Origin: Candidatus Saccharimonadota bacterium
GTDB lineage: Bacteria > Patescibacteriota > Saccharimonadia > Saccharimonadales > SZUA-47
Assembly (NCBI GenBank): GCA_016700315.1
Contig: CP065013.1
Location: 129,449-193,448, forward strand
Direction: 5' to 3'
Length of the DNA stretch: 64,000 nt
In this document: in pieces, positions 20,389 to 40,935 of the stretch
Layout of the letters: each line of letters opens with the position of its first letter
How positions within the stretch are numbered: position 1 is the stretch's first letter
Notes under the pieces: generated by a model
What the model saw: the letters and a program-made list of their open reading frames with translations, nothing else
Databases searched by the model: none
What the model was told of the DNA's origin: nothing
Position numbers and translations under genes: made by a program

Positions 20389-20498
20389 CAGCACCACTCC
20401 AAGGACTACAGCACCACTCCAAGGACTATCCTTGGAATTGATTTAACAGATTAGTTTGCGCAGACAGCCACCCTTCCAAGGATAGTCCTTGGAGTGGT
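20389..20498. repeat. REP doublet, 3' flank of RAYT-1
   Basis: The 20-bp direct repeat cagcaccactccaaggacta occurs twice (20389-20428). Hairpin tCCAAGGActaTCCTTGGa lies at 20418-20436. An inverted copy tCCAAGGAtagTCCTTGGa at 20475-20493 abuts the RAYT stop. Confidence 0.8.
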
Positions 20499-24200: not shown

Positions 24201-25683
24201 AGGCATCACTACTAGAGCGGCTGATTGCTATGGAAGTGTCCTGGCCGGTATTTGCCGCTACTGAATCTACTGTGACACATTGCCAGTCGGTAGAGTCACA
24301 GCTGCCACCTGAACCGACATAGTAGGCAAGCCTGAGGGAACCAGCAGTGTTATCTTTATAAGCTATCCAGGGCTTGCCATTGCTATTCATCGCGATTGAG
24401 GCATAGCTACCGACATCGTTTGTTGTCACAACACCGCTTGTCGATGTACCTCCACCCTTGGTGTAGTAATCTACTCTCAAGTTACCAGCTGTAGTATTCC
24501 GTGTTGCCACCCAAGCCCCTCCAGAAGAATCTAGGGCTAGACCAATCTGGCTGTTTTGGGCTGAAGTATCGACGTTAAAGCACTGATAGTTAGTATCCAA
24601 ACAATTACCGGTCGGCGATTCTGGTTTTTGAAAGCCCTTAACCCGCCTCCAGACACCATCACCAGTGTCGTAAAAAAGAGCGAGGTTCTCTGTGTCCACT
24701 GGCCCACTAGTGTTTTTGAGCTGAGTTCTTAGTGTCAGTCTTTCGCCTTTACGAGCAGAGACAGCTGTGCTACCAGGTGCGAGCTGGCCAGCACCATCTC
24801 CTGAAGCATCATCCATTTCCCAGATGTAACCTTTGAGCGCTAACTGTGGCTTGTTCTTGTAATAGGTATAGGTGGCGCTAACATTGGCTTGATACAACCT
24901 AACGTCATCATCTATAACACTAGCGGCACCAACGCCAACAGCATTACGCGTGAATCTTATCCTAAGATCGTTTATCGCCGACCAGCCAGTAGTAAAGGTT
25001 GTTGTGTAGTTGGTAATTGTTGTAGTCAGAGTAGTTGTCTGAGCTGTCTGCAAAGCACCATTGATATAGATGTTGACACTCACTGAGTCACAATTTGGTG
25101 CCGTGCCTTGACAAGCTGTGTCTATTTTGGCGCGCCAGTTTACTACAACCTGAGTAGTCTGTACGAATGTTCCGTTGATGGTTGGATTTTGAATAGTGTA
25201 GTCGTCTATTTCTCCAGTAGTGTTGCCCGCCAAACCCGTATTAACATAGTCGGCATCGTTAGCTGAAGTCTCATCGACAAGTGTGTAGTGGTTGGTGCCA
25301 GAACAGGCTGCATTCGTACATAGTTCCCAGCCGGCTGTGTTGTCACCATCAGGATATAGATTGTTTGTAGCGGTGTAAAGAGCTTGCGCAGGAGTGCTAC
25401 TCCTGAAAAAGTTAAGCAGTGGAACCCCAACCAGCAAAAGAACTGCAACAAATGACGAAACTCTTCGGAAGAACAGTGGGCTCAGCTTATAACGCCGCCC
25501 AATGTTTGCGAATAAGTTTTTTACTCTCCTTGGCTTTTTAACTTGTATACTTTTGATCGGGAGATTAGTCAGTATTGAGCTGCCCATCGTAGACGTTCGA
25601 GAGAAATAACTAGTGTCTTTAGAGGATATGTCGGCCTCTCTTGGCTTTACCCCATCAAGATAGTTTGTTCTTTTATAACGCAT
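21274..25683 (-). CDS. Giant surface protein D (class 2): two blocks of ~46-aa propeller-like repeats
   Basis: ORF of 1,469 aa. The ATG lies 1 nt after the stop of gene E (TAAAATG). TM helix FVAVLLLVGVPLL. About 15 repeats follow the pattern GNPW[VI]SYYDxTNxDLKVAxYVGSGGxGCASxAWxCTxVDTxGxVGxxTSIAFD. The C-terminal tail is QQLRHGRTFNRSLSQPF. Confidence 0.8.
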   Translation of the reverse strand: MRYKRTNYLDGVKPREADISSKDTSYFSRTSTMGSSILTNLPIKSIQVKKPRRVKNLFANIGRRYKLSPLFFRRVSSFVAVLLLVGVPLLNFFRSSTPAQALYTATNNLYPDGDNTAGWELCTNAACSGTNHYTLVDETSANDADYVNTGLAGNTTGEIDDYTIQNPTINGTFVQTTQVVVNWRAKIDTACQGTAPNCDSVSVNIYINGALQTAQTTTLTTTITNYTTTFTTGWSAINDLRIRFTRNAVGVGAASVIDDDVRLYQANVSATYTYYKNKPQLALKGYIWEMDDASGDGAGQLAPGSTAVSARKGERLTLRTQLKNTSGPVDTENLALFYDTGDGVWRRVKGFQKPESPTGNCLDTNYQCFNVDTSAQNSQIGLALDSSGGAWVATRNTTAGNLRVDYYTKGGGTSTSGVVTTNDVGSYASIAMNSNGKPWIAYKDNTAGSLRLAYYVGSGGSCDSTDWQCVTVDSVAANTGQDTSIAISRSSSDAWVSYYDVTNTNLRVAGSNNPSGTACTLASWECTTIDSTGDVGSYSKLALDNNGNPWIAYYDNTNNDLKVAQYVGAGAGTGCASNYWTCTSVDTGGNVGGFTSIAMDPSGNPWVSYYDTTNLDLKVAQYVGSGGSGCASSAWTCTSVDTSGSVGGYTSLAFDPIGNPWVSYQDITNTALKLARFVGSGGSGCASSAWSCTTVETTNSVGYFTSLAFDQDGVPWVAHEDLTTDSVRMAYLRQSLGAITLSSSQAGVSAFAESHADMTTSSDTSNRDDADCIGGGTWNNGKSFASDEGTGVSVADGSSTAQCTEVAWTIDTSQATINSTYRFFITTDDGERVERGRWRGPIAIDAFPTLTIEDDTKYNTTQILTKGTISNMPDCADTNWGCTAIDTATNVGGAAENNSYAVDRNGVGWISYYDQGNGDLRVANYVGTGGTGCAISSWTCTSVDTTNDVGQFTSIGIDSNGNPWVSYRDITNTGLRVARYVGSGGTGCASTAWTCTAVYNTGDSGSNGTSIAFDKSGVAWVSFRDSTATDLLVAKYVGSGGTGCVDSTWNCNTIASTGNVGYNSSLVFDQDNNIVISYRDATGTDLKIARYVGNGGSCDASPAWDCGSVDNPTNTVGHASSAAYDPTGAMWISHYDYDAAGLNLRVTKYVGTGGSCSNTSWSCTAVDTGGDVGEDTSIGFDSTGNAWVSYYDLTNGNLKVAKYVGSGGTGCASAAWNCTAVDTANNVGAGTAIAFDPNGNPSVVYGDSTNNDLRIATYKTQNVAPTFSTVNIAAPRNAIRSSGRYVLSNGQPSATPASHPCSGVLDMLGLCGALKEDGGYETMVAGVYERPMVMQKARFSNNSTAPTLAWTGLTDYPPNTAGTAGDLKLQIYRFGTTNAWEDVATDNSSSSCSSSSCKLNGMPGGTISEYFETEGSNYNVYFRVIQIENTSGSITFKTDVHKATQVVQQLRHGRTFNRSLSQPFATEQR

Positions 25684-25684
25684 T

Positions 25685-28600
25685 TTAGTTTGTGTAGAGG
25701 TAGCTTACTTCGCCTACCCTGACCCCGTTATTACTTAGTGATAGAGTCTTAAAGCTTACGGTAATTATATCATTCGCCGCAAAACTACAGCCAGTTAGAG
25801 TGACTGACTGTTCAGTCCAGGTATTAGCCGTGCCAGGGAGAACAGAGACACTGGTAGCACATGCTGTTCCAGCATTATCACGAACCGTAACTTGTATGTC
25901 ATTATTAGCCGTGCTGGTCGAAGCACCGTAAACCCAGACTTTGAATGTACCAAAGCCTGAGCGATAGTCGCTAGGGATCTGATTTCGCACCACTATATCG
26001 TAGTCCTGGAGTGATGCCTGAGAACTGCTCCAGCTGTAGTAGTTGTGGCGATTTGTACCATCGTAGTCTGAGGACATGACACCGCTATTGTTGGTCCCGT
26101 CCGCAGTAAGTGTCCCGCCAGCAAACTCAGGGATCATGTAAATCTTTCTGCTGTTGAAATTGTTACTGCAATCACCCCAGTTACCGTTCTGGTAACAGCG
26201 CATCTTACCAGTGCTACTGTTGTAGTACATCGCACCGTTTACTCCGGTAGGGTCGGTTGCATCAGTCTTTGTGTCGAGAACTAATAGTGTCCCTGCTGTG
26301 TCGGAAACGCCAATCTGTACTTGCCCATCGAACTGAGATATTCCACTATCAACCCACAGTGCGTATGTGCTAGCCCCTTCAACATATACACCATAGTTAT
26401 TTGTACCCGAAGTCTGGTTCCTAACCAATACGCCATAGCTGTTGGTTATGGTGGAGGATGCACCCTTAATTGGGTTTTCTGCCATTAGGCCTACGGTTGA
26501 ACTAAGAGTAAATGCTACGTTAGATGTATCGACTCGCCCATATATGCCAACACCAGAATTAGGGCTAGTTGGGTTATCTATGTATGGTATGCCCGTAACA
26601 CCGTAACAGCCGAAGTTACAAGCAACCGTTGATCCAAAAGTGCTCTTTACTCGTAAGCCTTCGTTAGACACTTGTGCGGAGCCAATTCCAACATTACCTT
26701 CTCCGCCAACTATCAACCCAGTATAAGCTCCATTATTTACTGTGGCTCTAAGAGCATATTGGCTAGAGCTAGAGGACTGAATGTCAATAGAAACACCATT
26801 AGCTGTAGAGTTTGCTGCATCGAGCGTTGCAAGGTTTCCAGTGCCTGAGCCGGTAACGTTTAGAACAGCACCGGTTGATCCTGTAAACTGTTGGTTAAGC
26901 TCTAAGATATTTGAGGTGTCAGTACAAGTACCGACGGTTTGTGTACAGTTTGACTGAAGATTGGCCAGATCACCAGTTATGTTTAGCGTCGCACTGGTGG
27001 CGTTAACGGTATTGGATCTAGAGACGTTCAGCCAACGGCCTGAGTCTGTTTGTGTTGCAGAAGCCGTGGCTAGCGTTCGCGCAGGTGAAACGTTGAGCCA
27101 ATTGCCAGTAAACCCAGCTGTAATACTGCTGGCTGTACTTCCGATGTTAACTGCAGAAGTATTCGTTGCGGCGTTATTTGTTGCAAGATAGAGCAAACCA
27201 CTAGATGCTCCCGTACCTGCATTTGTAATAGTAAGAACGTTTGCTGCACCAGTGGAGTTTTGAGTAAGACTCAGCAAGGCCGCAGTAGAGCCCAGATCGT
27301 TATTAGTTATGTTAGCTAGAGCGGTACTGCTGTCATTGGTTGCATCGTTAGCTTGAGTGATATTCAGAAGATTTGTCGAACGCGCTCCACCACTAAGATC
27401 GCTGTTCAGTACTAGACTTCCGGCATTCGCTCCGTTGAATGTAGCTGCTCGTGCTGCAGTTACACTAAGTATCGAACTACCGCTATTCTGCAGATCTAAC
27501 AAGGTTCCTCCTGTAGCCGTTGTTAGTAAGGCCGTACCCGTATTATTACCATTATCTATCTTGAGCACACCACTAGCTACCGCACTACTAGAGTTCGTAA
27601 AACCATAGAGGTAGTTTGAAGCCGTAACAGACAGGGTTGAAGTATCGGCGGCGTTTTTTGCAAGGTAGTTACCGCCGCTTGATGGTGCAAACGCAGTACA
27701 AGTTAGAGTGTCGCCTATAGTAGTAACAGCCGTACCAGCTGCACAGGCTGTTGGGTAGTTAGATAAAGCTGTCCAGTCTACTGTACCAGCAGAGCTAATG
27801 GTAATAGCGTCATTGATGTAGGCATCAGCTATGACACTACCCTGCCAAGTACCGGCTGTAACGACGCCAGAGCTGTTAATTTGGAACAAGTCACCGTTAC
27901 CAACAGTGAATAGCGATGCAGGTGTCATGTCACCTATGCCAAAGTTACCAGCATTAATATAGCTGACCGAGGAATCCGCCCTGAGCCTGACTGTGTTAGT
28001 GCCAGCGCTATATAAGTCCAAAATACCAACGTTACCCACACCCGAACCGTCATAAAGACTGGCGGTTAGGGTACCTGTGTCACGCACCTCAAAAGAGCCT
28101 TGACCTGCAGTTGATGATGAGCGAACTGCACCAACTACCTCAAGTGGTGTGGCAGGGTTAGTCAAGCCAACACCAACCCTGTTGTTGGTAGCGTCTACAT
28201 ATAAGGTGTTGGTGTCGACCGCTAGGTTATTTGTAACCACAGCGTTCCCCAAGTTGTCTACCGTGAATAGGTCAGTTCCACCGTTATTCTCTACTACAAA
28301 GATATTGGATGTTTGAGTACCGTTAGCTTGGACCAGAAGTTGTATCTCGTCACTATCTCCATCTACAGCTAACTTAGCTAGGGCTACGGCTGAGCCGATG
28401 GTTACATCGTCAGTGCTGGTTTGTAGAGTGACAAGTGTACCAGTGTCGGTGAAACCAGAGGTGTTGGTGCCAACATTGTCTGTGGCACAGGCCCAGGCTG
28501 AACCGTTCCACTTCATGATGTCGTTAGTGCTACAGCCGTTCTGGGCGATGTTGCTAAAGAGGATAGTAGCACTAGCTAGATCAGTACCAGTAACTGTACC

Positions 28601-31600
28601 GTCGGTTATCTCACTACTGTCTATGCTTGAACCAAAGTCATTAAGTAGAGTCAGAGTAACTGTACCACCAAGGCTAACCGTGCCACCACCAGTTAGGCCA
28701 GTACCGGCTGTAACAGTGATGCCGCTGTTGACTAGTTTAGCGTTAGTAATAGTACCGTCAGCAATATCTGCAGCTACAATGGTGCCATCGACTATCTCGC
28801 TACTGTCTATGCTAGTTCCTAGTGTAGCGGCAATGGTTAGAGTATCTGTAGTACCGTTACCAGTAATAGTAATACCAGCTCCATCACTTAGAGTTAGAGT
28901 ATCTGTACTGCTATCTGCTACTGGGTTGGTGCCGTTAGATACAGCTATTGTTTCGAAGGAGTTACCTGCTCCGCCGCCCGTTGCATCAGTTGCACAGGCC
29001 CAGGCTGAACCGTTCCACTTCATGATGTCGTTAGTGCTACAGCCGTTCTGGGCGATGTTACTAAAGAGGATGGTTGAGCTGGCGATGTCAGTACCTATGA
29101 CAGTACCGTCAGTTATCTCGCTAGATTCTATGGTTTGACCTAGTTTAGTCACGTTAGCACTTAGTGCACCGTCAGCTACACTACCTGATGAGCTAATAGT
29201 TAGAGCATCACTAATGTTAGTGTCGGTTAATTGTCCAGTGTAGCTTAGACTACCTAGAGCTAGAGTACCGCTGCTGAGAGTGCCGGTGTTATCTGCATCG
29301 AAGATGTAGGCTTCAACTTGAGCTTCGGTTAGAACAGTATCCGAATCTGCATCTGTACCACAGTACCAAGCAGTACCATTGAACTTAATTACTTCTCCAT
29401 TATTACAAGAGTTACTAGCAATGTCGGCGAAGGTAATAGTACCGTTAGCAATATCTGCACTGCTGACTTCACCGTCAGTTATCTCACTAGATTCGATGCT
29501 AGTACCTAGGGTTGAGCTAATGACATTACCGCCGCTGATGTTAATGCCAGTACCAGCTGTGTAGGTAGTGTCGGTGTCAGTGTCGGTATCACAATTCCAG
29601 CCAGCAGCTAGTGGGCCAGCACCATCTGGATCGGTTGTGTAGTACTTGAGGACTTGAGCATCAGTGCTACAGGCAGCTAGTTTAGCAGTAGTGACTGCAC
29701 CGGCGTTAATAAGGGCGGTGGTTATGGCATTGTTAGCAATGTCGGCAGTAGCAATAGTACCGTCGACTATCTCGCTGCTGTCGATGCTGGTGCCAAGTGA
29801 AGACTGTAAGGTAACTGTACCACCAAGGCTAACCGTGCCACCACCAGTTAGGCCAGTACCGGCTGTGACGGTGACGCTACTGTTAACTAGTTTAGCGTTA
29901 GTAATAGTACCATCAGCAATATCTGCAGCTACAATGGTGCCGTCGACTATCTCGCTACTGTCTATGCTAGTTCCAAGTACAGCAGCAACTGTTAGAGTGT
30001 CGGTTGTAGCATCACCAGTTATGGTAATACCTGAACCTTCAGCGATGGTTATAGTGTCTGTAGTGCTATCTGCAACTGGGTCGGTGCCATTAGGTGCATC
30101 AAAGGTAGCGAAGGTATTAGTACCACTACCAGTGTTGTCTGTGGCACAGGCCCAGGCTGAACCGTTCCACTTCATGATGTCGTTAGTGCTACAGCCGTTC
30201 TGGGCGATGTTGCTAAAGAGGATAGTAGCACTAGCTAGATCAGTACCAGTAACTGTACCGTCTGTTATCTCGCTGCTGTCGATGCTGGTGCCAAGTGAAG
30301 ACTGTAAGGTAACTGTGCCACCAAGGCTGACACTACCACCACCAGTTAGTCCAGTACCAGCCGTAACTGTTATAGCGCTGTTAGCTAATTGAGAGTTAGT
30401 GATACCAGCAGAAGCTGAGATATCTGTAGTGGTAATAGTACCGTTAGCAATATCTGCACTGCTGACTTCACCGTCAGTTATCTCACTAGATTCGATGCTA
30501 GTACCTAGGGTTGAGCTAATGACATTACCGCCGCTGATGTTAATGCCAGTACCAGCTGTGTAGGTAGTGTCGGTGTCAGTGTCGGTATCACAATTCCAGC
30601 CAGCAGCTAGTGGGCCAGCACCATCTGGATCGGTTGTGTAGTACTTGAGGATTTGGCTGTCACTGCTACAGGCAGCTAGTTTAGCAGTAGTGACTGCACC
30701 GGCGTTAATAAGGGCGGTGGTTATGGCATTGTTAGCAATGTCGGCAGTAGCAATAGTACCGTCGACTATCTCGCTGCTGTCGATGCTGGTGCCAAGCGTT
30801 GTTTGTAGGGAGTTGCCAGAAATAGTCAGACCAGTACCAGTAAGGTCGGTGAAGGCATCCCCATTTACAGTAAAGGTGTCCCCAGTCTCTAGAGTAAGCC
30901 CACCATTCAATGTCGTAAGCCCAGTTACGGTTAGGCTTCCCGAGAAAGTAGCAGCCCCAGCACTGGATATTGTTAAGCGATCTACATTATTAGTCTCGAG
31001 TGCAAAGGCTGAAGAGTCATTAGTGCCAACAGTCAGCGGACCCGTCTGCCCGCCGTTATACACATCGCCTGCCCCGTTACCAGAACCAGCACAATTACCA
31101 CTGGTAGTACACACTACTGATGTATCAATTGCTAGGGCTCCTGAAGAAACTAACAAACCAGTACCAGTAAGATCAGTAAAAGCGTCCCCATTGACGGTCA
31201 GTGTGTCTCCTGTTTCAAGAGTGAGACCACCATTAGCTGTTAGTAGTCCTGTAATGGTCGGGCTAGATACTAATGCGACAGTTACCGTATCAGTTGCGCC
31301 AGCAGTAGTGCTAATGTTGCTTCCTGCTGCAATTGTAATGGTGTCTGTGTCACTTATTGTTTGGCTAGTACCAGAGCTACCTGCCAATGTCAGACTAGTA
31401 AAGCCGCCGCCGCCAGCCGTACAGCTGCCCCAAACGGCCGTTGTTCCGTCGCTTAGAAGACACTGGTTATTTGAGCCAATACCCAGCTTTGTCCAGGTAT
31501 TTGACGTTGCGCCGCCTAGCAGTAAGTCACCTTGTGCGACCGTACTTTGACCAGTGCCTCCATTGCCTGCGCCTAGTACGCCATTGACCTCAGCTGTGTT

Positions 31601-34600
31601 TAGGTCAATCGTTGAACCAAAAAAGTTATTCAATGTTACTGACCCACCTAGCGAAACTGAACCACCTCCTGTCAATCCTGTCCCAGCAGTTACTGTGACT
31701 GAGCTATTTGCAAGATCGACATTTGCTATCGTTCCATCTGCTATATCGGCTGACAATATTGTGCCGTCGACGATCTCACTTGTTGTAATATCTGCACCGA
31801 GAGTAGCAGCGATAGTCAGTGTATCAGTGGTGCCATCGCCCGTGATAGTAACACCTGATCCTTGAGCAAAAGTTATAGTATCCGTTGTTGAATCAGCAAC
31901 AGGGTTAGTGCCATTTGGTGTGGCAAAGGTAGCAAATGTGTCAGTTCCCGAGCCCGTTGCATCAGTTGCACAGGCCCAGGCTGAACCGTTCCACTTCATG
32001 ATGTCGTTAGTGCTACAGCCGTTCTGGGCGATGTTACTAAAGAGGATGGTTGAGCTGGCGATGTCAGTACCTATGACAGTACCGTCAGTTATCTCGCTAG
32101 ATTCTATGGTTTGACCTAGTTTAGTCACGTTAGCACTTAGTGCACCGTCAGCTACACTACCTGATGAGCTAATAGTTAGAGCATCACTAATGTTAGTGTC
32201 GGTTAATTGTCCAGTGTAGCTTAGACTACCTAGAGCTAGAGTACCGCTGCTGAGAGTGCCGGTGTTATCTGCATCGAAGATGTAGGCTTCAACTTGAGCT
32301 TCGGTTAGAACAGTATCCGAATCTGCATCTGTACCACAGTACCAAGCAGTACCATTGAACTTAATTACTTCTCCATTATTACAAGAGTTACTAGCAATGT
32401 CGGCGAAGGTAATAGTACCGTTAGCAATATCTGCACTGCTGACTTCACCGTCAGTTATCTCACTAGATTCAATGCTAGTACCTAGTGTTGAGCTAATGAC
32501 ATTACCGCCGCTGATGTTAATGCCAGTACCAGCTGTGTAGGTAGTGTCGGTGTCAGTGTCGGTATCACAATTCCAGCCAGCAGCTAGTGGGCCAGCACCG
32601 TCTGGATCAGTTGTGTAGTACTTGAGGATTTGGCTGTCACTGCTACAGTTAGCTAGTTTAGCTAGAGTGACTGCACCGTCAGTGATGTCTACAGTAGCAA
32701 TAGTACCGTTGGCAATATCTGCGCTAGTGATGGTGCCGTCTAGTATCTCGTCACTAGTAACAGCATCAGTATTAATATCTGCTGCGGTTATAGTGTTGTC
32801 TGCTATTAGGGTGGAGGTAATAGCACTAGTAGCTATGTTAGAAGTAGTAATAGTTGAGCTAGCAATGTCAGTACCAGTAACTGTACCGTCGGTTATCTCA
32901 CTACTGTCTATGCTTGAACCAAAGTCATTAAGTAGAGTCAGAGTAACTGTACCACCAAGGCTAACCGTGCCACCACCAGTTAGGCCAGTACCGGCTGTAA
33001 CAGTGATGCCGCTGTTGACTAGTTTAGCGTTAGTAATAGTAGCGTCAGCAATATCTGCAGCTACAATGGTGCCATCGACTATCTCGCTACTGTCTATGCT
33101 AGTTCCTAGTGTAGCGGCAATGGTTAGAGTATCTGTAGTACCGTTACCAGTAATAGTAATACCAGCTCCATCACTTAGGGTTAGAGTATCTGTACTGCTA
33201 TCTGCTACTGGGTTAGTACCGTTAGATACAGCGATTGTTTCGAAGGAGTTACCTGCTCCGCCGCCCGTTGCATCAGTTGCACAGGCCCAGGCTGAACCGT
33301 TCCACTTCATGATGTCGTTAGTGCTACAGCCGTTCTGGGCGATGTTACTAAAGAGGATGGTTGAGCTGGCGATGTCAGTACCTATGACAGTACCGTCAGT
33401 TATCTCGCTAGATTCTATGGTTTGACCTAGTTTAGTCACGTTAGCACTTAGTGCACCGTCAGCTACACTACCTGATGAGCTAATAGTTAGAGCATCACTA
33501 ATGTTAGTGTCGGTTAATTGTCCAGTGTAGCTTAGACTACCTAGAGCTAGAGTACCGCTGCTGAGAGTGCCGGTGTTATCTGCATCGAAGATGTAGGCTT
33601 CAACTTGAGCTTCGGTTAGAACAGTATCCGAATCTGCATCTGTACCACAGTACCAAGCAGTACCATTGAACTTAATTACTTCTCCATTATTACAAGAGTT
33701 ACTAGCAATGTCGGCGAAGGTAATAGTACCGTTAGCAATATCTGCACTGCTGACTTCACCGTCAGTTATCTCACTAGATTCGATGCTAGTACCTAGGGTT
33801 GAGCTAATGACATTACCGCCGCTGATGTTAATGCCAGTACCAGCTGTGTAGGTAGTGTCGGTGTCAGTGTCGGTATCACAATTCCAGCCAGCAGCTAGTG
33901 GGCCAGCACCGTCTGGATCAGTTGTGTAGTACTTGAGGATTTGGCTGTCACTGCTACAGTTAGCTAGCTTAGCTAGAGTGACTGCACCGTCAGTGATGTC
34001 TACAGTAGCAATAGTACCGTTGGCAATATCTGCGCTAGTGATGGTGCCGTCTAGTATCTCGTCACTAGTAACAGCATCAGTATTAATATCTGCTGCGGTT
34101 ATAGTGTTGTCTGCTATTAGGGTGGAGGTAATAGCACTAGTAGCTATGTTAGAAGTAGTAATAGTTGAGCTAGCAATGTCAGTACCAGTAATTGTACCAT
34201 CAGTTATCTCACTACTGTCTATGCTTGAACCAAAGTCATTAAGTAGAGTCAGAGTAACTGTACCACCAAGGCTAACCGTGCCACCACCAGTTAGGCCAGT
34301 ACCGGCTGTAACAGTGATGCCGCTGTTGACTAGTTTAGCGTTAGTAATAGTAGCGTCAGCAATATCTGCAGCTACAATGGTGCCATCGACTATCTCGCTA
34401 CTGTCTATGCTAGTTCCTAGTGTAGCGGCAATGGTTAGAGTATCTGTCGTACCGTTACCAGTAATAGTAATACCAGCTCCATCACTTAGGGTTAGAGTAT
34501 CTGTACTACTATCTGCTACTGGGTTAGTACCGTTAGATACAGCGATTGTTTCGAAGGAGTTACCTGCTCCGCCGCCCGTTGCATCAGTTGCACAGGCCCA

Positions 34601-34750
34601 GGCTGAACCGTTCCACTTCATGATGTCATTAGTGCTACAGCCGTTCTGGGCGATGTTACTAAAGAGGATGGTTGAGCTGGCGATGTCAGTACCTATGACA
34701 GTACCGTCAGTTATCTCGCTAGATTCTATGGTTTGACCTAGTTTAGTCAC
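25685..34750 (-). CDS. Giant surface protein E, 3' segment (frame is open up to ~35815; the track start is only the first in-frame GTG)
   Basis: Same frame (end coordinate mod 3 = 1) as the 5' segment 38111-40711. I checked 34751-35797 codon by codon against the neighbouring repeat copy and found no stop. Ends with the class-1 C-terminal module. Confidence 0.8.
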   Translation of the reverse strand: MTKLGQTIESSEITDGTVIGTDIASSTILFSNIAQNGCSTNDIMKWNGSAWACATDATGGGAGNSFETIAVSNGTNPVADSSTDTLTLSDGAGITITGNGTTDTLTIAATLGTSIDSSEIVDGTIVAADIADATITNAKLVNSGITVTAGTGLTGGGTVSLGGTVTLTLLNDFGSSIDSSEITDGTITGTDIASSTITTSNIATSAITSTLIADNTITAADINTDAVTSDEILDGTITSADIANGTIATVDITDGAVTLAKLANCSSDSQILKYYTTDPDGAGPLAAGWNCDTDTDTDTTYTAGTGINISGGNVISSTLGTSIESSEITDGEVSSADIANGTITFADIASNSCNNGEVIKFNGTAWYCGTDADSDTVLTEAQVEAYIFDADNTGTLSSGTLALGSLSYTGQLTDTNISDALTISSSGSVADGALSANVTKLGQTIESSEITDGTVIGTDIASSTILFSNIAQNGCSTNDIMKWNGSAWACATDATGGGAGNSFETIAVSNGTNPVADSSTDTLTLSDGAGITITGNGTTDTLTIAATLGTSIDSSEIVDGTIVAADIADATITNAKLVNSGITVTAGTGLTGGGTVSLGGTVTLTLLNDFGSSIDSSEITDGTVTGTDIASSTITTSNIATSAITSTLIADNTITAADINTDAVTSDEILDGTITSADIANGTIATVDITDGAVTLAKLANCSSDSQILKYYTTDPDGAGPLAAGWNCDTDTDTDTTYTAGTGINISGGNVISSTLGTSIESSEITDGEVSSADIANGTITFADIASNSCNNGEVIKFNGTAWYCGTDADSDTVLTEAQVEAYIFDADNTGTLSSGTLALGSLSYTGQLTDTNISDALTISSSGSVADGALSANVTKLGQTIESSEITDGTVIGTDIASSTILFSNIAQNGCSTNDIMKWNGSAWACATDATGSGTDTFATFATPNGTNPVADSTTDTITFAQGSGVTITGDGTTDTLTIAATLGADITTSEIVDGTILSADIADGTIANVDLANSSVTVTAGTGLTGGGSVSLGGSVTLNNFFGSTIDLNTAEVNGVLGAGNGGTGQSTVAQGDLLLGGATSNTWTKLGIGSNNQCLLSDGTTAVWGSCTAGGGGFTSLTLAGSSGTSQTISDTDTITIAAGSNISTTAGATDTVTVALVSSPTITGLLTANGGLTLETGDTLTVNGDAFTDLTGTGLLVSSGALAIDTSVVCTTSGNCAGSGNGAGDVYNGGQTGPLTVGTNDSSAFALETNNVDRLTISSAGAATFSGSLTVTGLTTLNGGLTLETGDTFTVNGDAFTDLTGTGLTISGNSLQTTLGTSIDSSEIVDGTIATADIANNAITTALINAGAVTTAKLAACSSDSQILKYYTTDPDGAGPLAAGWNCDTDTDTDTTYTAGTGINISGGNVISSTLGTSIESSEITDGEVSSADIANGTITTTDISASAGITNSQLANSAITVTAGTGLTGGGSVSLGGTVTLQSSLGTSIDSSEITDGTVTGTDLASATILFSNIAQNGCSTNDIMKWNGSAWACATDNTGSGTNTFATFDAPNGTDPVADSTTDTITIAEGSGITITGDATTDTLTVAAVLGTSIDSSEIVDGTIVAADIADGTITNAKLVNSSVTVTAGTGLTGGGTVSLGGTVTLQSSLGTSIDSSEIVDGTIATADIANNAITTALINAGAVTTAKLAACSTDAQVLKYYTTDPDGAGPLAAGWNCDTDTDTDTTYTAGTGINISGGNVISSTLGTSIESSEITDGEVSSADIANGTITFADIASNSCNNGEVIKFNGTAWYCGTDADSDTVLTEAQVEAYIFDADNTGTLSSGTLALGSLSYTGQLTDTNISDALTISSSGSVADGALSANVTKLGQTIESSEITDGTVIGTDIASSTILFSNIAQNGCSTNDIMKWNGSAWACATDATGGGAGNSFETIAVSNGTNPVADSSTDTLTLSDGAGITITGNGTTDTLTIAATLGTSIDSSEIVDGTIVAADIADGTITNAKLVNSGITVTAGTGLTGGGTVSLGGTVTLTLLNDFGSSIDSSEITDGTVTGTDLASATILFSNIAQNGCSTNDIMKWNGSAWACATDNVGTNTSGFTDTGTLVTLQTSTDDVTIGSAVALAKLAVDGDSDEIQLLVQANGTQTSNIFVVENNGGTDLFTVDNLGNAVVTNNLAVDTNTLYVDATNNRVGVGLTNPATPLEVVGAVRSSSTAGQGSFEVRDTGTLTASLYDGSGVGNVGILDLYSAGTNTVRLRADSSVSYINAGNFGIGDMTPASLFTVGNGDLFQINSSGVVTAGTWQGSVIADAYINDAITISSAGTVDWTALSNYPTACAAGTAVTTIGDTLTCTAFAPSSGGNYLAKNAADTSTLSVTASNYLYGFTNSSSAVASGVLKIDNGNNTGTALLTTATGGTLLDLQNSGSSILSVTAARAATFNGANAGSLVLNSDLSGGARSTNLLNITQANDATNDSSTALANITNNDLGSTAALLSLTQNSTGAANVLTITNAGTGASSGLLYLATNNAATNTSAVNIGSTASSITAGFTGNWLNVSPARTLATASATQTDSGRWLNVSRSNTVNATSATLNITGDLANLQSNCTQTVGTCTDTSNILELNQQFTGSTGAVLNVTGSGTGNLATLDAANSTANGVSIDIQSSSSSQYALRATVNNGAYTGLIVGGEGNVGIGSAQVSNEGLRVKSTFGSTVACNFGCYGVTGIPYIDNPTSPNSGVGIYGRVDTSNVAFTLSSTVGLMAENPIKGASSTITNSYGVLVRNQTSGTNNYGVYVEGASTYALWVDSGISQFDGQVQIGVSDTAGTLLVLDTKTDATDPTGVNGAMYYNSSTGKMRCYQNGNWGDCSNNFNSRKIYMIPEFAGGTLTADGTNNSGVMSSDYDGTNRHNYYSWSSSQASLQDYDIVVRNQIPSDYRSGFGTFKVWVYGASTSTANNDIQVTVRDNAGTACATSVSVLPGTANTWTEQSVTLTGCSFAANDIITVSFKTLSLSNNGVRVGEVSYLYTN
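28480..30800 (-). repeat. Second block of the same repeat family within gene E (one near-identical unit plus diverged or partial units)
   Basis: 28980-29560 is essentially identical to 31950-32540. The landmark at 29379 lies 2,976 nt from the next copy, so this block is not in register with the main array. The ~1.15-kb unique segment 30800-31950 separates it from the main array. Confidence 0.8.
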
Positions 34751-37700
34751 GTTAGCACTTAGTGCACCGTCAGCTACACTACCTGATGAGCTAATAGTTA
34801 GAGCATCACTAATGTTAGTGTCGGTTAATTGTCCAGTGTAGCTTAGACTACCTAGAGCCAGAGTACCGCTGCTGAGAGTGCCGGTGTTATCTGCATCGAA
34901 GATGTAGGCTTCAACTTGAGCTTCGGTTAGAACAGTATCCGAATCTGCATCTGTACCACAGTACCAAGCAGTACCATTGAACTTAATTACTTCTCCATTA
35001 TTACAAGAGTTACTAGCAATGTCGGCGAAGGTAATAGTACCGTTAGCAATATCTGCACTGCTGACTTCACCGTCAGTTATCTCACTAGATTCAATGCTAG
35101 TACCTAGTGTTGAGCTAATGACATTACCGCCGCTGATGTTAATGCCAGTACCAGCTGTGTAGGTAGTGTCGGTGTCAGTGTCGGTATCACAATTCCAGCC
35201 AGCAGCTAGTGGGCCAGCACCGTCTGGATCGGTTGTGTAGTACTTGAGGATTTGGCTGTCACTGCTACAGTTAGCTAGTTTAGCTAGAGTGACTGCACCG
35301 TCAGTGATGTCTACAGTAGCAATAGTACCGTTGGCAATATCTGCGCTAGTGATGGTGCCGTCTAGTATCTCGTCACTAGTAACAGCATCAGTATTAATAT
35401 CTGCTGCGGTTATAGTGTTGTCTGCTATTAGGGTGGAGGTAATAGCACTAGTAGCTATGTTAGAAGTAGTAATAGTTGAGCTAGCAATGTCGGTACCAGT
35501 AACTGTACCATCGGTTATCTCACTACTGTCTATGCTTGAAGCAAAGTCAGTACGTAGAGTCAGAGTAACTGTGCCACCAAGGCTAGCCGTGCCACCACCA
35601 GTTAGGCCAGTACCGGCTGTAACAGTGATGCCGCTGTTGACTAGTTTAGCGTTAGTAATAGTAGCGTCAGCAATATCTGCAGCTACAATGGTGCCATCGA
35701 CTATCTCGCTACTGTCTATGCTAGTTCCTAGTGTAGCGGCAATGGTTAGAGTATCTGTAGTACCGTTACCAGTAATAGTAATACCAGCTCCATCACTTAG
35801 GTTAGAGTATCTGTACTACTATCTGCTACTGGGTTAGTACCGTTAGATACAGCGATTGTTTCGAAGGAGTTACCTGCTCCGCCGCCCGTTGCATCAGTTG
35901 CACAGGCCCAGGCTGAACCGTTCCACTTCATGATGTCGTTAGTGCTACAGCCGTTCTGGGCGATGTTGCTAAAGAGGATGGTTGAGCTGGCGATGTCAGT
36001 ACCTATGACAGTACCGTCAGTTATCTCGCTAGATTCTATGGTTTGACCTAGTTTAGTCACGTTAGCACTTAGTGCACCGTCAGCTACACTACCTGATGAG
36101 CTAATAGTTAGAGCATCACTAATGTTAGTGTCGGTTAATTGTCCAGTGTAGCTTAGACTACCTAGAGCTAGAGTACCGCTGCTGAGAGTGCCGGTGTTAT
36201 CTGCATCGAAGATGTAGGCTTCAACTTGAGCTTCGGTTAGAACAGTATCCGAATCTGCATCTGTACCACAGTACCAAGCAGTACCATTGAACTTAATTAC
36301 TTCTCCATTATTACAAGAGTTACTAGCAATGTCGGCGAAGGTAATAGTACCGTTAGCAATATCTGCACTGCTGACTTCACCGTCAGTTATCTCACTAGAT
36401 TCAATGCTAGTACCTAGTGTTGAGCTAATGACATTACCGCCGCTGATGTTAATGCCAGTACCAGCTGTGTAGGTAGTGTCGGTGTCAGTGTCGGTATCAC
36501 AATTCCAGCCAGCAGCTAGTGGGCCAGCACCGTCTGGATCGGTTGTGTAGTACTTGAGGATTTGGCTGTCACTGCTACAGTTAGCTAGCTTAGCTAGAGT
36601 GACTGCACCGTCAGTGATGTCTACAGTAGCAATAGTACCGTTGGCAATATCTGCGCTAGTGATGGTGCCGTCTAGTATCTCGTCACTAGTAACAGCATCA
36701 GTATTAATATCTGCTGCGGTTATAGTGTTGTCTGCTATTAGGGTGGAGGTAATAGCACTAGTAGCTATGTTAGAAGTAGTAATAGTTGAGCTAGCAATGT
36801 CGGTACCAGTAATAGTGCCATTAGTTATCTCACTACTGTCTATGCTTGAACCAAAGTCATTAAGTAGAGTCAGAGTAACTGTACCACCAAGGCTAACTGT
36901 GCCACCACCAGTTAGGCCAGTGCCGGCTGTAACAGTGATGCCGCTGTTGACTAGTTTAGCGTTAGTAATAGTAGCGTCAGCAATATCTGCAGCTACAATG
37001 GTGCCATCGACTATCTCGCTACTGTCTATGCTAGTTCCTAGTGTAGCGGCAATGGTTAGAGTATCTGTCGTACCGTTACCAGTAATAGTAATACCAGCTC
37101 CATCACTTAGGGTTAGAGTATCTGTACTACTATCTGCAACTGGGTTAGTACCGTTAGATACAGCGATTGTTTCGAAGGAGTTACCTGCTCCGCCGCCCGT
37201 TGCATCAGTTGCACAGGCCCAGGCTGAACCGTTCCACTTCATGATGTCACCACTGCCACAGCCGTTCTGGGCGATGTTGCTAAAGAGGATGGTTGAGCTG
37301 GCGATGTCAGTACCTATGACAGTACCGTCTGTTATCTCGCTAGATTCTATGGTTTGACCTAGTTTAGTCACGTTAGCACTTAGTGCACCGTCAGCTACAC
37401 TACCTGATGAGCTAATAGTTAGAGCATCACTAATGTTAGTGTCGGTTAATTGTCCGGTGTAGCTTAGACTACCTAGAGCTAGAGTACCGCTGCTGAGAGT
37501 GCCGGTGTTATCTGCATCGAAGATGTAGGCTTCAACTTGAGCTTCGGTTAGAACAGTATCCGAATCTGCGTCTGTACCACAGTACCAAGCAGTACCATTG
37601 AACTTAATTACTTCTCCATTATTACAAGAGTTACTAGCAATGTCGGCGAAGGTAATAGTACCGTTAGCAATATCTGCACTGCTGACTTCACCGTCAGTTA

Positions 37701-39105
37701 TCTCACTAGATTCAATGCTAGTACCTAGGGTTGAGCTAATGACATTACCGCCGCTGATGTTAATGCCAGTACCAGCTGTGTAGGTAGTGTCGGTGTCAGT
37801 GTCGGTATCACAATTCCAGCCAGCAGCTAGTGGGCCAGCACCGTCTGGATCAGTTGTGTAGTACTTGAGGATTTGGCTGTCACTGCTACAGTTAGCTAGC
37901 TTAGCTAGAGTGACTGCACCGTCAGTGATGTCTACAGTAGCAATAGTACCGTTGGCAATATCTGCGCTAGTGATGGTGCCGTCTAGTATCTCGTCACTAG
38001 TAACAGCATCAGTATTAATATCTGCTGCGGTTATAGTGTTGTCTGCTATTAGGGTGGAGGTAATAGCACTAGTAGCTATGTTAGAAGTAGTAATAGTTGA
38101 GCTAGCAATGTCAGTACCAGTAACTAGTGCCATTAGTTATCTCACTACTGTCTATGCTTGAACCAAAGTCATTAAGTAGAGTCAGAGTAACTGTACCACC
38201 AAGGCTAACTGTGCCACCACCAGTTAGGCCAGTGCCGGCTGTAACAGTGATGCCACTGTTGACTAGTTTAGCGTTAGTAATAGTAGCGTCAGCAATATCT
38301 GCAGCTACTATGGTGCCATCGACTATCTCGCTACTGTCTATGCTAGTTCCTAGTGTAGCGGCAATGGTTAGAGTATCTGTCGTACCGTTACCAGTAATAG
38401 TAATACCAGCTCCATCACTTAGGGTTAGAGTATCTGTACTGCTATCTGCTACTGGGTTAGTGCCGTTAGATACAGCTATTGTTTCGAAGGAGTTACCTGC
38501 TCCGCCGCCCGTTGCATCAGTTGCACAGGCCCAGGCTGAACCGTTCCACTTCATGATGTCGTTAGTGCTACAGCCGTTCTGGGCGATGTTGCTAAAGAGG
38601 ATGGTTGAGCTGGCGATGTCAGTACCTATGACAGTACCGTCTGTTATCTCGCTAGATTCTATGGTTTGACCTAGTTTAGTCACGTTAGCACTTAGTGCAC
38701 CGTCAGCTACACTACCTGATGAGCTAATAGTTAGAGCATCACTAATGTTAGTGTCGGTTAATTGTCCAGTGTAGCTTAGACTACCTAGAGCTAGAGTACC
38801 GCTGCTGAGAGTGCCGGTGTTATCTGCATCGAAGATGTAGGCTTCAACTTGAGCTTCGGTTAGAACAGTATCCGAATCTGCATCTGTACCACAGTACCAA
38901 GCAGTACCATTGAACTTAATTACTTCTCCATTATTACAAGAGTTACTAGCAATGTCGGCGAAGGTAATAGTACCGTTAGCAATATCTGCACTGCTGACTT
39001 CACCGTCAGTTATCTCACTAGATTCAATGCTAGTACCTAGTGTTGAGCTAATGACATTACCGCCGCTGATGTTAATGCCAGTACCAGCTGTGTAGGTAGT
39101 GTCGG
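31955..39105 (-). repeat. Tandem array of 1,311-bp (437-aa) units, ~5.45 copies, ~98-99% nucleotide identity
   Basis: Landmark strings recur at 32355, 33666, 34977, 36287, 37598 and 38910. The spacings are 1311, 1311, 1310, 1311 and 1312. I counted ~15 substitutions in ~1,050 aligned nt between two adjacent copies. Confidence 0.9.
35797..38133 (-). CDS. Giant surface protein E, middle segment (shifted frame, between the two frameshifts)
   Basis: 778 aa of the same 437-aa repeat units read in a different frame. It stops at TAA 35797-35799, which is created by loss of one G at 35800-35801. Confidence 0.7.
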   Translation of the reverse strand: MALVTGTDIASSTITTSNIATSAITSTLIADNTITAADINTDAVTSDEILDGTITSADIANGTIATVDITDGAVTLAKLANCSSDSQILKYYTTDPDGAGPLAAGWNCDTDTDTDTTYTAGTGINISGGNVISSTLGTSIESSEITDGEVSSADIANGTITFADIASNSCNNGEVIKFNGTAWYCGTDADSDTVLTEAQVEAYIFDADNTGTLSSGTLALGSLSYTGQLTDTNISDALTISSSGSVADGALSANVTKLGQTIESSEITDGTVIGTDIASSTILFSNIAQNGCGSGDIMKWNGSAWACATDATGGGAGNSFETIAVSNGTNPVADSSTDTLTLSDGAGITITGNGTTDTLTIAATLGTSIDSSEIVDGTIVAADIADATITNAKLVNSGITVTAGTGLTGGGTVSLGGTVTLTLLNDFGSSIDSSEITNGTITGTDIASSTITTSNIATSAITSTLIADNTITAADINTDAVTSDEILDGTITSADIANGTIATVDITDGAVTLAKLANCSSDSQILKYYTTDPDGAGPLAAGWNCDTDTDTDTTYTAGTGINISGGNVISSTLGTSIESSEITDGEVSSADIANGTITFADIASNSCNNGEVIKFNGTAWYCGTDADSDTVLTEAQVEAYIFDADNTGTLSSGTLALGSLSYTGQLTDTNISDALTISSSGSVADGALSANVTKLGQTIESSEITDGTVIGTDIASSTILFSNIAQNGCSTNDIMKWNGSAWACATDATGGGAGNSFETIAVSNGTNPVADSSTDTLT

Positions 39106-40711
39106 TGTCAGTAGAAGGGACCCAACCAGTACCATTCCACTTTAGAACTTCACCAGACGATGCGCCTTGTTGGGCCAGGTTGAAGGTCGTACCAACTAGG
39201 CTTAGACCCTGCCCAGCGCTATACGTAGTTCCCACAGGTACTGCACAAGCGAACGCGACCCCGTTCCATACGGGAGCTTCGCCATTTGAGCTACAACTGA
39301 GGCCGCTAACCGTATCGCCACTGCGTGAAAATAGGCCATTGCCCGTAAAGGTTAGGGGATTCTCTTTGGAGTTGAATGTTACCCAATCTGTACTAGTCAG
39401 AAGGCCAGTAGTTGTATTCGATGCCGAGTTGATTGTTATTACACCACTAGAAACTGTAGCATTAGATAACGTTAAGGCACCCGAAGCCCCATTGATAGAA
39501 GCTACTCCATTTGCTCCGGGACACGTAGTGAAGATCGGAGCGCCCGAAGTACTGACCAAGCACTGACCAGCACTTGCTGCGCTGGCAGTCTGTAGCGCAC
39601 CAGCCCCGCCGCCAATCACTACGCCGTTGTTGGTGATACTGGTTAGCCCCGTACCACCCGAACTAACGCTGAGAGCAGTAGATAAAATAAGTCCAGAAAA
39701 TGTTGGGCTGGCACTTGTATCGATGTTCTGTACTGTGTTGGCTACGCCAGCAGCAACAGTAAAGTTGATGCCGTTGAACTGAGCTATTCCCTTAGCTGAT
39801 GTGGAGGCATCATTGATTGTGATAGTACTACCAGAAGCTGAAGAGTCTGCTACTGCTAGGTTACCAGCGAGTCCGTTAAGACTAGTTACGCCTGCACCGA
39901 CTCCACCTGGACACACACCGAAGGCGGGCGCTCCAGCCGTGCTAAGCAAACACAACCCCGCTGTGGCTGTTGATGCAGTTGTTACAGGAGAACTTCCGTT
40001 ACCAAGTAAAACCCCGTTTGGAGTCAAACTTGTAGCACCCGTACCCCCAGAACCAACAGCAAGTGCGTTCGAAAGATTAACACCTGAAAAAGTTGGTACT
40101 GCAGTCGGATTCAAAGATTGAGGCAATGAGATCGAGGCAATACCGTTAGCTGTGCTAACATTTATGTCCCCGGCTGTACCGTTTACACCGAGCAAACCAC
40201 TCGAACTGATAGTAGTTCCGTTGATAGCAATGCCTGCTCCTGGAACTAGACTAACCGCACCAGTTTGACCTTGCAGACTCGTGACACCGGCGACTGTTGG
40301 TGCAGCAGTTTGCTGGTTGTTGGCTTCTGTAGTCGGCAGCTGCACAAATTTACTGCCGTCGTAATACTGTAAGGTTGAGGTAGCAGAGTCAAAAACCAAA
40401 GTTCCCGGCTTAGCGTTAGCCGGTAGGGACTGCGGCAAAATTGTTATCGGCCCGTTAAGCTGTAAATTGGGATTTATGGTCAAAGTCTGACCAGCAAAAC
40501 CTAGACTTTTACCATCATCTGATAGATAGCCGTTAACAGAGGCTTTTTGATAGCCTACATTCAGCGAAGAATTTTTCTTGGAAGCAAAATAGAATGCTAA
40601 AAGACTGAGTAAGAAAACAATTATCATAAGTAGCACAATAATCACTCCACGACGAAGAAAGGACCAGAAACCGTAGTCTTCTCTATTGTAATGAGGTTGT
40701 GTTGGCTGCAT
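38111..40711 (-). CDS. Giant surface protein E, 5' segment (N-terminal anchor plus unique stalk plus first repeat unit)
   Basis: ATG at 40711 preceded by AAAATAAAAACAAAATCAAA. TM helix VIIVLLMIIVFLLSLLAFYF. Terminates at 38111 immediately after an extra C at 38124. Confidence 0.75.
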   Translation of the reverse strand: MQPTQPHYNREDYGFWSFLRRGVIIVLLMIIVFLLSLLAFYFASKKNSSLNVGYQKASVNGYLSDDGKSLGFAGQTLTINPNLQLNGPITILPQSLPANAKPGTLVFDSATSTLQYYDGSKFVQLPTTEANNQQTAAPTVAGVTSLQGQTGAVSLVPGAGIAINGTTISSSGLLGVNGTAGDINVSTANGIASISLPQSLNPTAVPTFSGVNLSNALAVGSGGTGATSLTPNGVLLGNGSSPVTTASTATAGLCLLSTAGAPAFGVCPGGVGAGVTSLNGLAGNLAVADSSASGSTITINDASTSAKGIAQFNGINFTVAAGVANTVQNIDTSASPTFSGLILSTALSVSSGGTGLTSITNNGVVIGGGAGALQTASAASAGQCLVSTSGAPIFTTCPGANGVASINGASGALTLSNATVSSGVITINSASNTTTGLLTSTDWVTFNSKENPLTFTGNGLFSRSGDTVSGLSCSSNGEAPVWNGVAFACAVPVGTTYSAGQGLSLVGTTFNLAQQGASSGEVLKWNGTGWVPSTDTDTTYTAGTGINISGGNVISSTLGTSIESSEITDGEVSSADIANGTITFADIASNSCNNGEVIKFNGTAWYCGTDADSDTVLTEAQVEAYIFDADNTGTLSSGTLALGSLSYTGQLTDTNISDALTISSSGSVADGALSANVTKLGQTIESSEITDGTVIGTDIASSTILFSNIAQNGCSTNDIMKWNGSAWACATDATGGGAGNSFETIAVSNGTNPVADSSTDTLTLSDGAGITITGNGTTDTLTIAATLGTSIDSSEIVDGTIVAADIADATITNAKLVNSGITVTAGTGLTGGGTVSLGGTVTLTLLNDFGSSIDSSEITNGTSYWY

Positions 40712-40935
40712 TTTGATTTTGTTTTTATTTTAGCTTTAGTGCTTAATTCAAATTATCCTCCGTAAAACAGATTGGAACAATAAGAATTAATAATAAATTT
40801 GTTCAGGAATTTTGCTAATATTAATCAATAAATTTTATTGCTTTTGATGTTTTTTACACATCGTTAACGATAATTACGGGGTTGTTCTCGTTGAAAAGGA
40901 TTATAACAGATAGGACTTCAGCAAGAAAACGACAT

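Follow-up and report, generated by a model that had tools for sequence, protein, structure and literature searches.

A 5,008-residue repeat protein gene of a Saccharibacteria genome, divided into three reading frames by two single-base indels of probable assembly origin

The closed, single-contig Candidatus Saccharibacteria MAG studied here (988 kb) contains three consecutive minus-strand open reading frames, which have been deposited as separate proteins (QQS65075/78/79; locus tags IPO96_00745/00760/00765) on a contig of 988,272 bp. Two questions are raised by this locus, namely whether these frames are the parts of one gene, and, if so, whether the interruptions between them exist in the organism or only in its assembled sequence. 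Both were addressed within a window of 64,000 nucleotides, which is the whole stretch of DNA that was analysed; all coordinates refer to this window.

A single gene in three reading frames

The first part, piece A (IPO96_00765, QQS65079.1; 38111..40711, minus strand), has 866 residues, contains the true N-terminus of the gene and ends in NGTSYWY before its stop codon. Piece B (IPO96_00760; 35797..38136, minus strand, frame 1) comprises 1.8 repeat units and is devoid of an anchor or signal, and piece C (IPO96_00745; 25685..35815, minus strand, frame 0) contains the remaining repeats and a unique C-terminal region. A preliminary description of this DNA had placed the two outer ORFs in one frame, with a stop-free middle part (35797-38133) in another. 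This is what was found when the minus strand was scanned from stop to stop: frame 0 is open across 38111-40729 (872 codons), frame 1 across 35797-38136 (779 codons), and frame 0 again across 25685-35815 (3376 codons). Counted from their first start codons in the ORF listing, pieces A, B and C have 866, 778 and 3021 residues, respectively. Piece B then starts at an out-of-register ATG at 38133, piece C is annotated only from a GTG at 34750, and some 1 kb of the coding region (34751-35815) belongs to none of the three annotated proteins.

Chance is not a plausible explanation for the open frame of piece B, since frame 0, which it has left, is interrupted by 118 stops among the 771 codons of 35797-38110, while the open frame encodes the repeat family of the adjoining array with 98-99% identity. 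Removal of one base at 38124 and addition of one base at 35800 restores an ORF of 15,027 nt (25685..40711, minus strand; 5,008 residues) with zero internal stops. The three pieces are one real gene, as had been proposed.

A large part of this gene consists of a near-identical tandem array of about 5.4 units of 1311 nt (437 residues), delineated by landmark spacing and copy alignment at 31990..39100 on the minus strand. The units differ pairwise by 10-24 positions per 1311 nt, i.e. they share 98-99% DNA identity, and no tandem array of short period was found in the gene with TRF. A recurring 25-mer landmark is found at 38560, 37248, 35937, 34627, 33316 and 32005, giving spacings of 1312, 1311, 1310, 1311 and 1311 nt. 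The earlier observation of 1312 nt over the first interruption, 1310 nt over the second and 1311 nt elsewhere is hereby confirmed, and alignment of the five copies agrees with the proposed +1/-1 pair of indels, an extra C at 38124 and GG for GGG at 35800.

Both lesions are located within the array. Lesion A (38124..38126, minus strand) is one extra base in copy 1, a C at 38124 on the plus strand; the minus strand reads GGCACTAGTTACTGG, where the sister copies have GGCACTATTACTGG, GGTACAGTTACTGG or GGTACAATTACTGG. It leads to a TGA stop at 38111-38113, four codons further on. The sequence ACTAGTT at this site is an exact merge of the ACTATT and ACAGTT alleles found in sister copies, and the site is situated in the most variable patch of the repeat unit (columns 344-468, which hold 15 of the 37 variable columns in the five-copy alignment). 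Lesion B (35800..35801, minus strand), in copy 3, is one missing base in a 3-nt homopolymer, i.e. GG instead of GGG on the plus strand and CC instead of CCC on the minus strand, and leads to a TAA at 35797-35799; the minus strand reads AACCTAAG, and all four sister copies read AACCCTAAG. The preliminary description called the two indels compensating. This is correct in that the net frame is restored, but lesion B rescues nothing functionally, since a ribosome would already have stopped at the TGA at 38111-38113 after lesion A. Two independent single-nucleotide indels have opposite signs about half of the time.

The predicted product and its homologues

The 5,008-residue product is predicted to be a membrane-anchored, fibre-like surface protein, with the array as its stalk. 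The translation of piece A contains a predicted membrane anchor at residues 22-44 (GVIIVLLMIIVFLLSLLAFYFAS; 40580..40648, minus strand), preceded by a short basic tail, and this is the only such segment among the three pieces. A basic tail together with a hydrophobic segment is also present in each of the giant ORFs nearby, and pieces B and C lack an N-terminus of this kind. On the chromosome, the gene is clustered with others for giant membrane-anchored proteins, beside the ileS, ftsZ and nrd housekeeping genes, and no phage context was found around it. Its host is an uncultured member of the Saccharibacteria that is probably of the episymbiont type.

Family assignments were limited for most of the protein. 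None of the three pieces had an above-threshold match in Pfam or NCBIfam, and a PDB sequence search with the repeat unit and the C-terminal region found no relative. The repeat unit does match the tail-fibre and baseplate-connector profiles phrog_892, phrog_28766 and phrog_677, with E-values of 1.6e-5 to 7.8e-11. The repeat modules are of low complexity, rich in S, T, G, D and I, rich in beta structure, and poorly predicted as monomers; an AlphaFold2 monomer model of one unit had a mean pLDDT of 55.5 and a pTM of 0.25. Given the resemblance to phage tail fibres, a trimeric fibre and a monomeric rod appear equally likely as the form of the stalk.

The unique C-terminal region (25685..28480, minus strand; about 930 residues) has no family match and is conserved in relatives with about 95% identity. 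Over 599 C-terminal codons, comparison with one such relative (L149) gave 151 synonymous against 30 non-synonymous codon differences, a constraint similar to that of a neighbouring gene (119:35). These ratios indicate that this region, which lies downstream of both lesions, is under purifying selection in the ~95%-identical relatives. Among the five repeat units, 23 of the 32 variable codon columns vary only synonymously in the restored frame. A search for further decay found no other stop in the 15 kb beyond those caused by the two lesions. A fixed pseudogene finds little support here: the frame is broken, yet neither extra stops nor relaxed constraint were encountered.

Searches for homologues were made at both the DNA and the protein level. 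L001, an Illumina scaffold from this species with 99.44% identity, aligns over 13,859 nt of unique flank with zero gaps; this scaffold and a second contig of the species (L003) end at 39058, at the first repeat copy and before lesion A. Relatives at about 95% identity cover only the C-terminus, and in one of them (L002) the sequence immediately upstream of the last 530 codons differs. A DNA pattern over both sites, allowing either state, matched all five copies in the window and had no match in the metagenome collection, and a protein-guided scan of metagenomes gave no match above 67% identity. In a protein database search with the repeat unit, the only matches above about 70% identity were this genome's own ORFs. 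The C-terminal region retrieved short partial matches only, and exact-protein look-ups with piece A and with the downstream 1469-residue gene returned no record. A scan of the genome collection did not retrieve the present genome, but gave sister species, as well as a 1.8-kb contig of the same species that had been binned into a Conexibacter MAG.

More distant homologues are informative about the reading frame. Seven homologues assembled from short reads, six in sister Saccharibacteria MAGs (L004, L006-L010) and one on an unbinned metagenome contig (L082), each consist of one uninterrupted frame, with lengths of 1397 to 2317 codons, and homologues keep one frame through the positions of both lesions. 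One further candidate for a frame-split short-read homologue (L011) was rejected, as it is interrupted by nothing but a stretch of N. The homologue in CP064992 (L012), in contrast to the short-read homologues, is divided into seven overlapping open frames inside its own near-identical array of about 1413 nt. Single ORFs of 4-5.4 thousand residues with this repeat occur elsewhere.

Origin of the two indels

We consider it likely that both single-nucleotide indels are consensus or polishing artefacts of a Nanopore-based assembly. The sequencing source can be approached through CP064992, whose tags (QQS18764, IPL68_) belong to the same accession and locus-tag series as the QQS and IPO96_ tags of the present genome, and which appears in the supplement of Singleton et al. 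2021 (PMC8012365). Genomes in that study were assembled from R9.4.1 Nanopore reads by CANU, Flye or Unicycler, and polished with Racon, twice with medaka, and finally with Racon using Illumina reads (PMC8012365). Consensus indels that cause frameshifts are on record for R9.4.1 data (PMC9262707). From the shared series, and from the long reads that are needed to span the array, we infer that the present genome probably belongs to the same dataset.

A plausible course of events can be proposed. Because short reads cannot be assigned to a single copy in a 7-kb array of near-identical 1.3-kb units, homopolymer miscalls would stay uncorrected, and a change of CCC to CC as in lesion B could result. 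Where reads of different copies are piled together, the consensus may thread through both alleles, and ACTATT and ACAGTT would be merged into the ACTAGTT of lesion A. The indels may thus either have survived polishing or have arisen from it. In favour of such an artefact, both lesions have error-like signatures and lie in the array, the remainder of the gene shows no degradation, and the unique flank is free of gaps relative to the Illumina scaffold; moreover, the short-read homologues are intact, as opposed to the seven frames of the CP064992 homologue, and pieces B and C lack the anchored N-terminus of piece A. Counting against it, a homopolymer of 3 nt is shorter than usual for an R9.4.1 consensus error, and the shattered CP064992 homologue could also reflect genuine decay of genes of this type. 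As no independent assembly spans either site, the artefact is inferred and not observed; we would expect individual reads to disagree with the consensus at the lesions. Peptides spanning the restored junctions would not discriminate, since the intact sister copies encode identical peptides, and the peptides informative on translation beyond the lesions are those of the unique C-terminal part (about 930 residues).

The preliminary description had left three options, the lesions being either very recent or not real. Its option of a long-read or polishing error is the one favoured here, a freshly inactivated gene is less probable, and an on/off switch finds no sequence support, since neither a mutable tract nor a slippery site is present.

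Of the alternatives to an artefact, the best surviving is that at least one of the lesions is a genuine frameshift of very recent date, although we regard this as rather unlikely. The population would then make only an anchored stub of 866 residues, the remaining 12.4 kb being a nascent pseudogene, or the lesions would be a polymorphism of the population. The lesions are present in the deposited sequence, the homologue in CP064992 is likewise broken, and the divergent sequence of L002 upstream of the last 530 codons hints at structural variation in this region. Large repetitive surface-protein genes are also often inactivated. On the other hand, the 15 kb without stops, the mostly synonymous variation between copies and the strongly constrained C-terminus argue against real frameshifts, as do the error-like lesions at places where polishing cannot work and the intact frames of the short-read-assembled homologues. 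In 12 kb of neutrally drifting sequence, moreover, a second indel would be expected to come only after several, mostly non-synonymous, substitutions.

A reversible switch seems highly improbable, being a possibility and not an observation. The indels would abolish the full-length fibre, which would be regained when copies of the array undergo gene conversion or cross over unequally. The geometry does fit, since an intact B-site, lesion A, lesion B and an intact A-site follow one another along the gene. An in-register crossover between the interval from 38424 (the site-B equivalent of copy 1) to lesion A and the interval from lesion B to 35504, each of about 300 nt, would delete two units together with both lesions, leaving an ORF of about 4,134 residues. 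High DNA identity between copies is furthermore known to drive changes of repeat number in Periscope-type proteins (PMC9704523). However, 13 variable alignment columns within about 316 nt distinguish the two crossover intervals, and the mutable tracts of known contingency loci are missing, site B being a 3-nt run and site A not being a repeat. A slipped-strand phase-variable locus was rejected as a candidate, with no long homopolymer or short tandem repeat at either site.

Programmed ribosomal frameshifting (+1 at site A and -1 at site B, yielding the full-length protein), in favour of which only the restored net frame can be cited, is effectively refuted by the absence of the required signals. 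At the point of the frame change, site A (ACU AGU UAC UGG UAC UGA) lacks a shifty codon for a +1 slip with a stop or hungry codon after it, and a heptamer of the type X XXY YYZ is missing from site B (CUA ACC UAA). Four sister copies, which are translated without any change of frame, have identical flanks, and the homologues do not shift at either position.

Significance and comparison with known systems

In its present form, the annotation turns one protein of 5,008 residues into three hypothetical proteins. Catalogues of proteins and counts of genes are thereby distorted, and a gene that ranks among the largest in this 0.99-Mb genome is concealed. Long near-identical coding repeats are where hybrid-polished Nanopore MAGs stay unreliable, and the merged-allele insertion may serve as a recognisable mark of mixed-copy polishing. 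If the lesions are real, they would indicate that a giant surface fibre of a Saccharibacteria lineage was lost, or switched, very recently, with a bearing on how episymbionts vary their host-contact surface. With a true switch, an ultrasmall episymbiont would be able to turn a giant host-contact protein on and off, and to change its length, in a stochastic manner.

The lesions resemble the residual errors of hybrid-polished R9.4.1 assemblies in being single-base indels, one of them homopolymeric, in repeats that short reads cannot polish, in having unique flanks without indels relative to an Illumina contig, and in the presence of a shattered homologue in a sibling genome of the presumed dataset. 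They differ from these in that the homopolymer, at 3 nt, does not reach the length of the classic problem tracts, and that the merged-allele insertion fits mixed-copy pileups better than homopolymer miscalling.

Periscope proteins are displayed on the cell surface and contain long tandem repeats that are very highly identical at the DNA level and vary in number (PMC9704523). The protein described here shares with them a predicted surface anchor, a stalk of tandem repeats, whose units far exceed 50 residues and are 98-99% identical in their DNA, and a separate domain at the distal end. Unlike Periscope proteins, it has an N-terminal membrane segment instead of a cell-wall sorting motif, its unit is a 437-residue composite of sub-modules instead of a single domain of 50-165 residues, and its repeats resemble phage tail fibres. 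The profile matches of the repeat unit (phrog_892, phrog_28766, phrog_677) relate it to phage tail-fibre and baseplate-connector modules, but the gene is chromosomal, beside ileS, ftsZ and nrd, and not in a phage context. Finally, the gene can be compared to the giant genes of CPR, Omnitrophota and other uncultured bacteria, as it encodes a repetitive surface protein of several thousand residues in a small genome; among these, a length of 5,008 residues is large, but not extreme.

Open frames and single-base indels of the giant gene

A stop-to-stop scan identified three long minus-strand open frames that abut one another: piece A (38111–40729, frame 0; 866 aa from the first start codon), piece B (35797–38136, frame 1; 778 aa) and piece C (25685–35815, frame 0; 3021 aa). 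Their translations contain the same S/T/G/D/I-rich repeat. At NCBI all three are annotated as hypothetical proteins (IPO96_00765, QQS65079.1, 866 aa; IPO96_00760, QQS65078.1, 778 aa; and IPO96_00745, QQS65075.1, 3021 aa, respectively) on a 988,272-bp contig of a 'Candidatus Saccharibacteria bacterium' MAG. Only piece A carries the predicted N-terminal anchor; pieces B and C begin mid-repeat, and are therefore not stand-alone genes.

The spacings of a 25-mer landmark across the repeat array are 1312, 1311, 1310, 1311 and 1311 nt, and the lesions were located by aligning the five near-identical repeat units. Copy 1 has one additional base at 38124–38126 (lesion A), where the minus strand reads GGCACTAGTTACTGG as compared to GGCACTATTACTGG, GGTACAGTTACTGG or GGTACAATTACTGG in sister copies, while copy 3 lacks one base at 35800–35801 (lesion B), reading AACCTAAG as compared to AACCCTAAG in the other four of the five copies. 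Deleting the extra base and putting back the missing one gives a single ORF of 15,027 nt, encoding 5,008 aa with zero internal stops; the frame given up by piece B has 118 stops in 771 codons. The coordinates, spacings and length in the preliminary description, as well as its reading of the pieces as one gene, are thereby confirmed. Its term 'compensating' holds for the net frame, which is restored (frames 0, 1, 0), but lesion B rescues nothing functionally, because translation would end at the TGA at 38111–38113, four codons past lesion A. Two independent 1-nt indels are of opposite sign half the time.

Upstream of the GTG at which IPO96_00745 is annotated to start, ~1 kb of repeat-coding sequence in the same frame (34751–35815) is left out of every annotated piece of the gene; locus tags 00750 and 00755 fall within this gap. 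On the plus strand, identical antisense ORFs of 267 aa occur one per repeat unit (32622–33425, 33933–34736 and 36554–37357). These are by-products of repeat composition that could be mis-called as genes.

Origin of the split

The split of the giant gene is probably non-biological, i.e. an artefact of assembly or polishing. The lines of evidence on the lesions are indirect; all are compatible with an artefact and most favour it. In lesion B a homopolymer has lost one base. Lesion A (ACTAGTT) interleaves two alleles, ACTATT and ACAGTT, and falls in the middle of the stretch that varies most between units in the five-copy alignment; a graph or pileup consensus could yield such a merged allele during polishing when reads of different copies stack. 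Both lesions lie within the 7-kb array, inside which 150-bp reads are impossible to assign to one copy, and the adjoining 13.9 kb of unique sequence shows zero indels relative to the Illumina scaffold L001. The same-species short-read contigs L001 (99.44%) and L003 (99.55%) stop exactly at the first repeat copy (39058), and coverage of the giant gene by the ~95% relatives is limited to the C-terminus. A DNA pattern allowing either state at both sites had no match in the metagenome collection, and protein-guided searches (metagenome scan and protein database) found no independent sequence closer than 67%, the database matches above ~70% being this genome's own ORFs.

The supplement of Singleton et al. 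2021 lists the closed Saccharibacteria genome CP064992.1 (L012), which shares its protein-accession and locus-tag series (QQS, IPL68_) with the genome described here (QQS, IPO96_). In that study, R9.4.1 Nanopore reads were assembled with CANU, Flye or Unicycler, and polishing proceeded through Racon, medaka (two rounds) and a final Racon step using Illumina reads (PMC8012365). Frameshift-causing indels in R9.4.1 consensus sequences are well documented (PMC9262707). The lesion pair matches a known class, the residual indel errors of hybrid-polished Nanopore assemblies. The homologue in CP064992.1 (L012 7253–14101) consists of seven overlapping open frames in the order 2, 3, 2, 1, 3, 1, 2, with the breaks inside its own ~1413-nt near-identical array; later spacings (1256 and 1264) are not multiples of three, and the region is probably a long-read bridge that was left unpolished. 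Seven short-read-assembled homologues, from sister Saccharibacteria MAGs (L004, L006–L010) and an unbinned metagenome contig (L082), each form a single open frame (1397 to 2317 codons); in an eighth, L011, the only break is a run of N.

A real, very recent frameshift, either fixed or polymorphic, is considered unlikely. The 15 kb are intact except for the two indels, and in the restored frame the units vary only synonymously at 23 of 32 variable codon columns. Past both lesions, comparison of the C-terminal 599 codons with a ~95% relative shows 151 synonymous against 30 non-synonymous codon differences; this stretch is no less constrained than the neighbouring gene (119:35). When 120-aa peptides across the restored junctions were aligned to sister-species homologues, each matched in one frame. 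Far less probable still is a recombinational switch, in which one in-register crossover would remove both lesions together with two units, although copy 1 (38424 to lesion A) could geometrically pair with copy 3 (lesion B to 35504). Programmed frameshifting to make the full-length protein is not supported, as site B has no slippery heptamer and site A no shifty site, and the flanks are the same as in four sister copies, which read in one frame. Slipped-strand phase variation was rejected, with no mutable tract at either lesion. With an artefact as the preferred reading, the three database entries ought to be merged into one protein of 5,008 aa, and near-identical coding repeats should be viewed with suspicion in the Nanopore dataset presumed to be the source.

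The restored protein and its neighbourhood

The restored protein starts with a short basic tail and a hydrophobic segment (aa 22–44, predicted anchor), followed by ~520 aa of unique sequence, ~5.4 repeat units of 437 aa with only 10–24 nt differences per 1311, further copies of these modules that have diverged more, and a unique C-terminal region of ~930 aa. No Pfam or NCBIfam family scored above threshold, and a PDB sequence search found no relative. The repeat unit matches PHROGs of phage tail-fibre and baseplate-connector proteins (E = 1.6e-5 to 7.8e-11). Its AlphaFold2 monomer model is poor (pLDDT 55.5), as might be expected of a module that is fibrous and possibly trimeric. The family of the repeat is extensive: an exhaustive search returned 7,373 proteins at E <= 1e-3, including single ORFs of 4,259 to 5,399 aa.

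Contig L003 (CAZRLR010000685.1; 1,793 bp) encodes the first 551 aa of the giant gene (protein identity 100%, DNA 99.55%) and is binned in a MAG labelled 'uncultured Conexibacter sp.', likely by mis-binning. On an ENA scaffold of a ~95% relative (L002 1–662, compared with window position 27414), a sigma-70 region-2 gene takes the place of the remainder of the giant gene ahead of the last 530 codons; either the contig is chimeric or the variant is a rearranged or truncated one.

The giant gene is part of a minus-strand run of giant ORFs, the others being of 1250, 2142 (Kelch), 2177 (CBM_4_9) and 1469 aa; at its N-terminus, each of these bears a basic tail and a hydrophobic segment of its own. 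The run (1585–40711), including the 5,008-aa gene, covers ~39 kb, roughly 4% of the 0.99-Mb genome, and upstream of it lie rplU, ileS, a nrdJ-type RNR gene, nrdR, ftsZ and ftsA. A single base separates the stop codon of the giant gene (25685–25687) from the ATG of the 1469-aa gene (25681–25683), an arrangement that suggests co-transcription and translational coupling. Mobile elements are notably well represented for a genome of ~1 Mb, with two IS200-like Y1 transposase ORFs (20498–21136, minus; 62227–62835, plus) and an rve-type integrase with HTH domains (56995–57999, minus). Just downstream of the first of the Y1 transposase ORFs is a perfect tandem duplication of 20 nt (2.1 copies of TACAGCACCACTCCAAGGAC, 20387–20428).

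The giant gene resembles those of Periscope proteins (PMC9704523) in its predicted anchor, its stalk of high-identity tandem repeats and its distal domain. Its modules are tail-fibre-like. Since the protein departs from that class, or stays unmatched, in several of the defining features, namely domain size, rod-forming fold and strain-to-strain variation in repeat number, we do not count it among the Periscope proteins.
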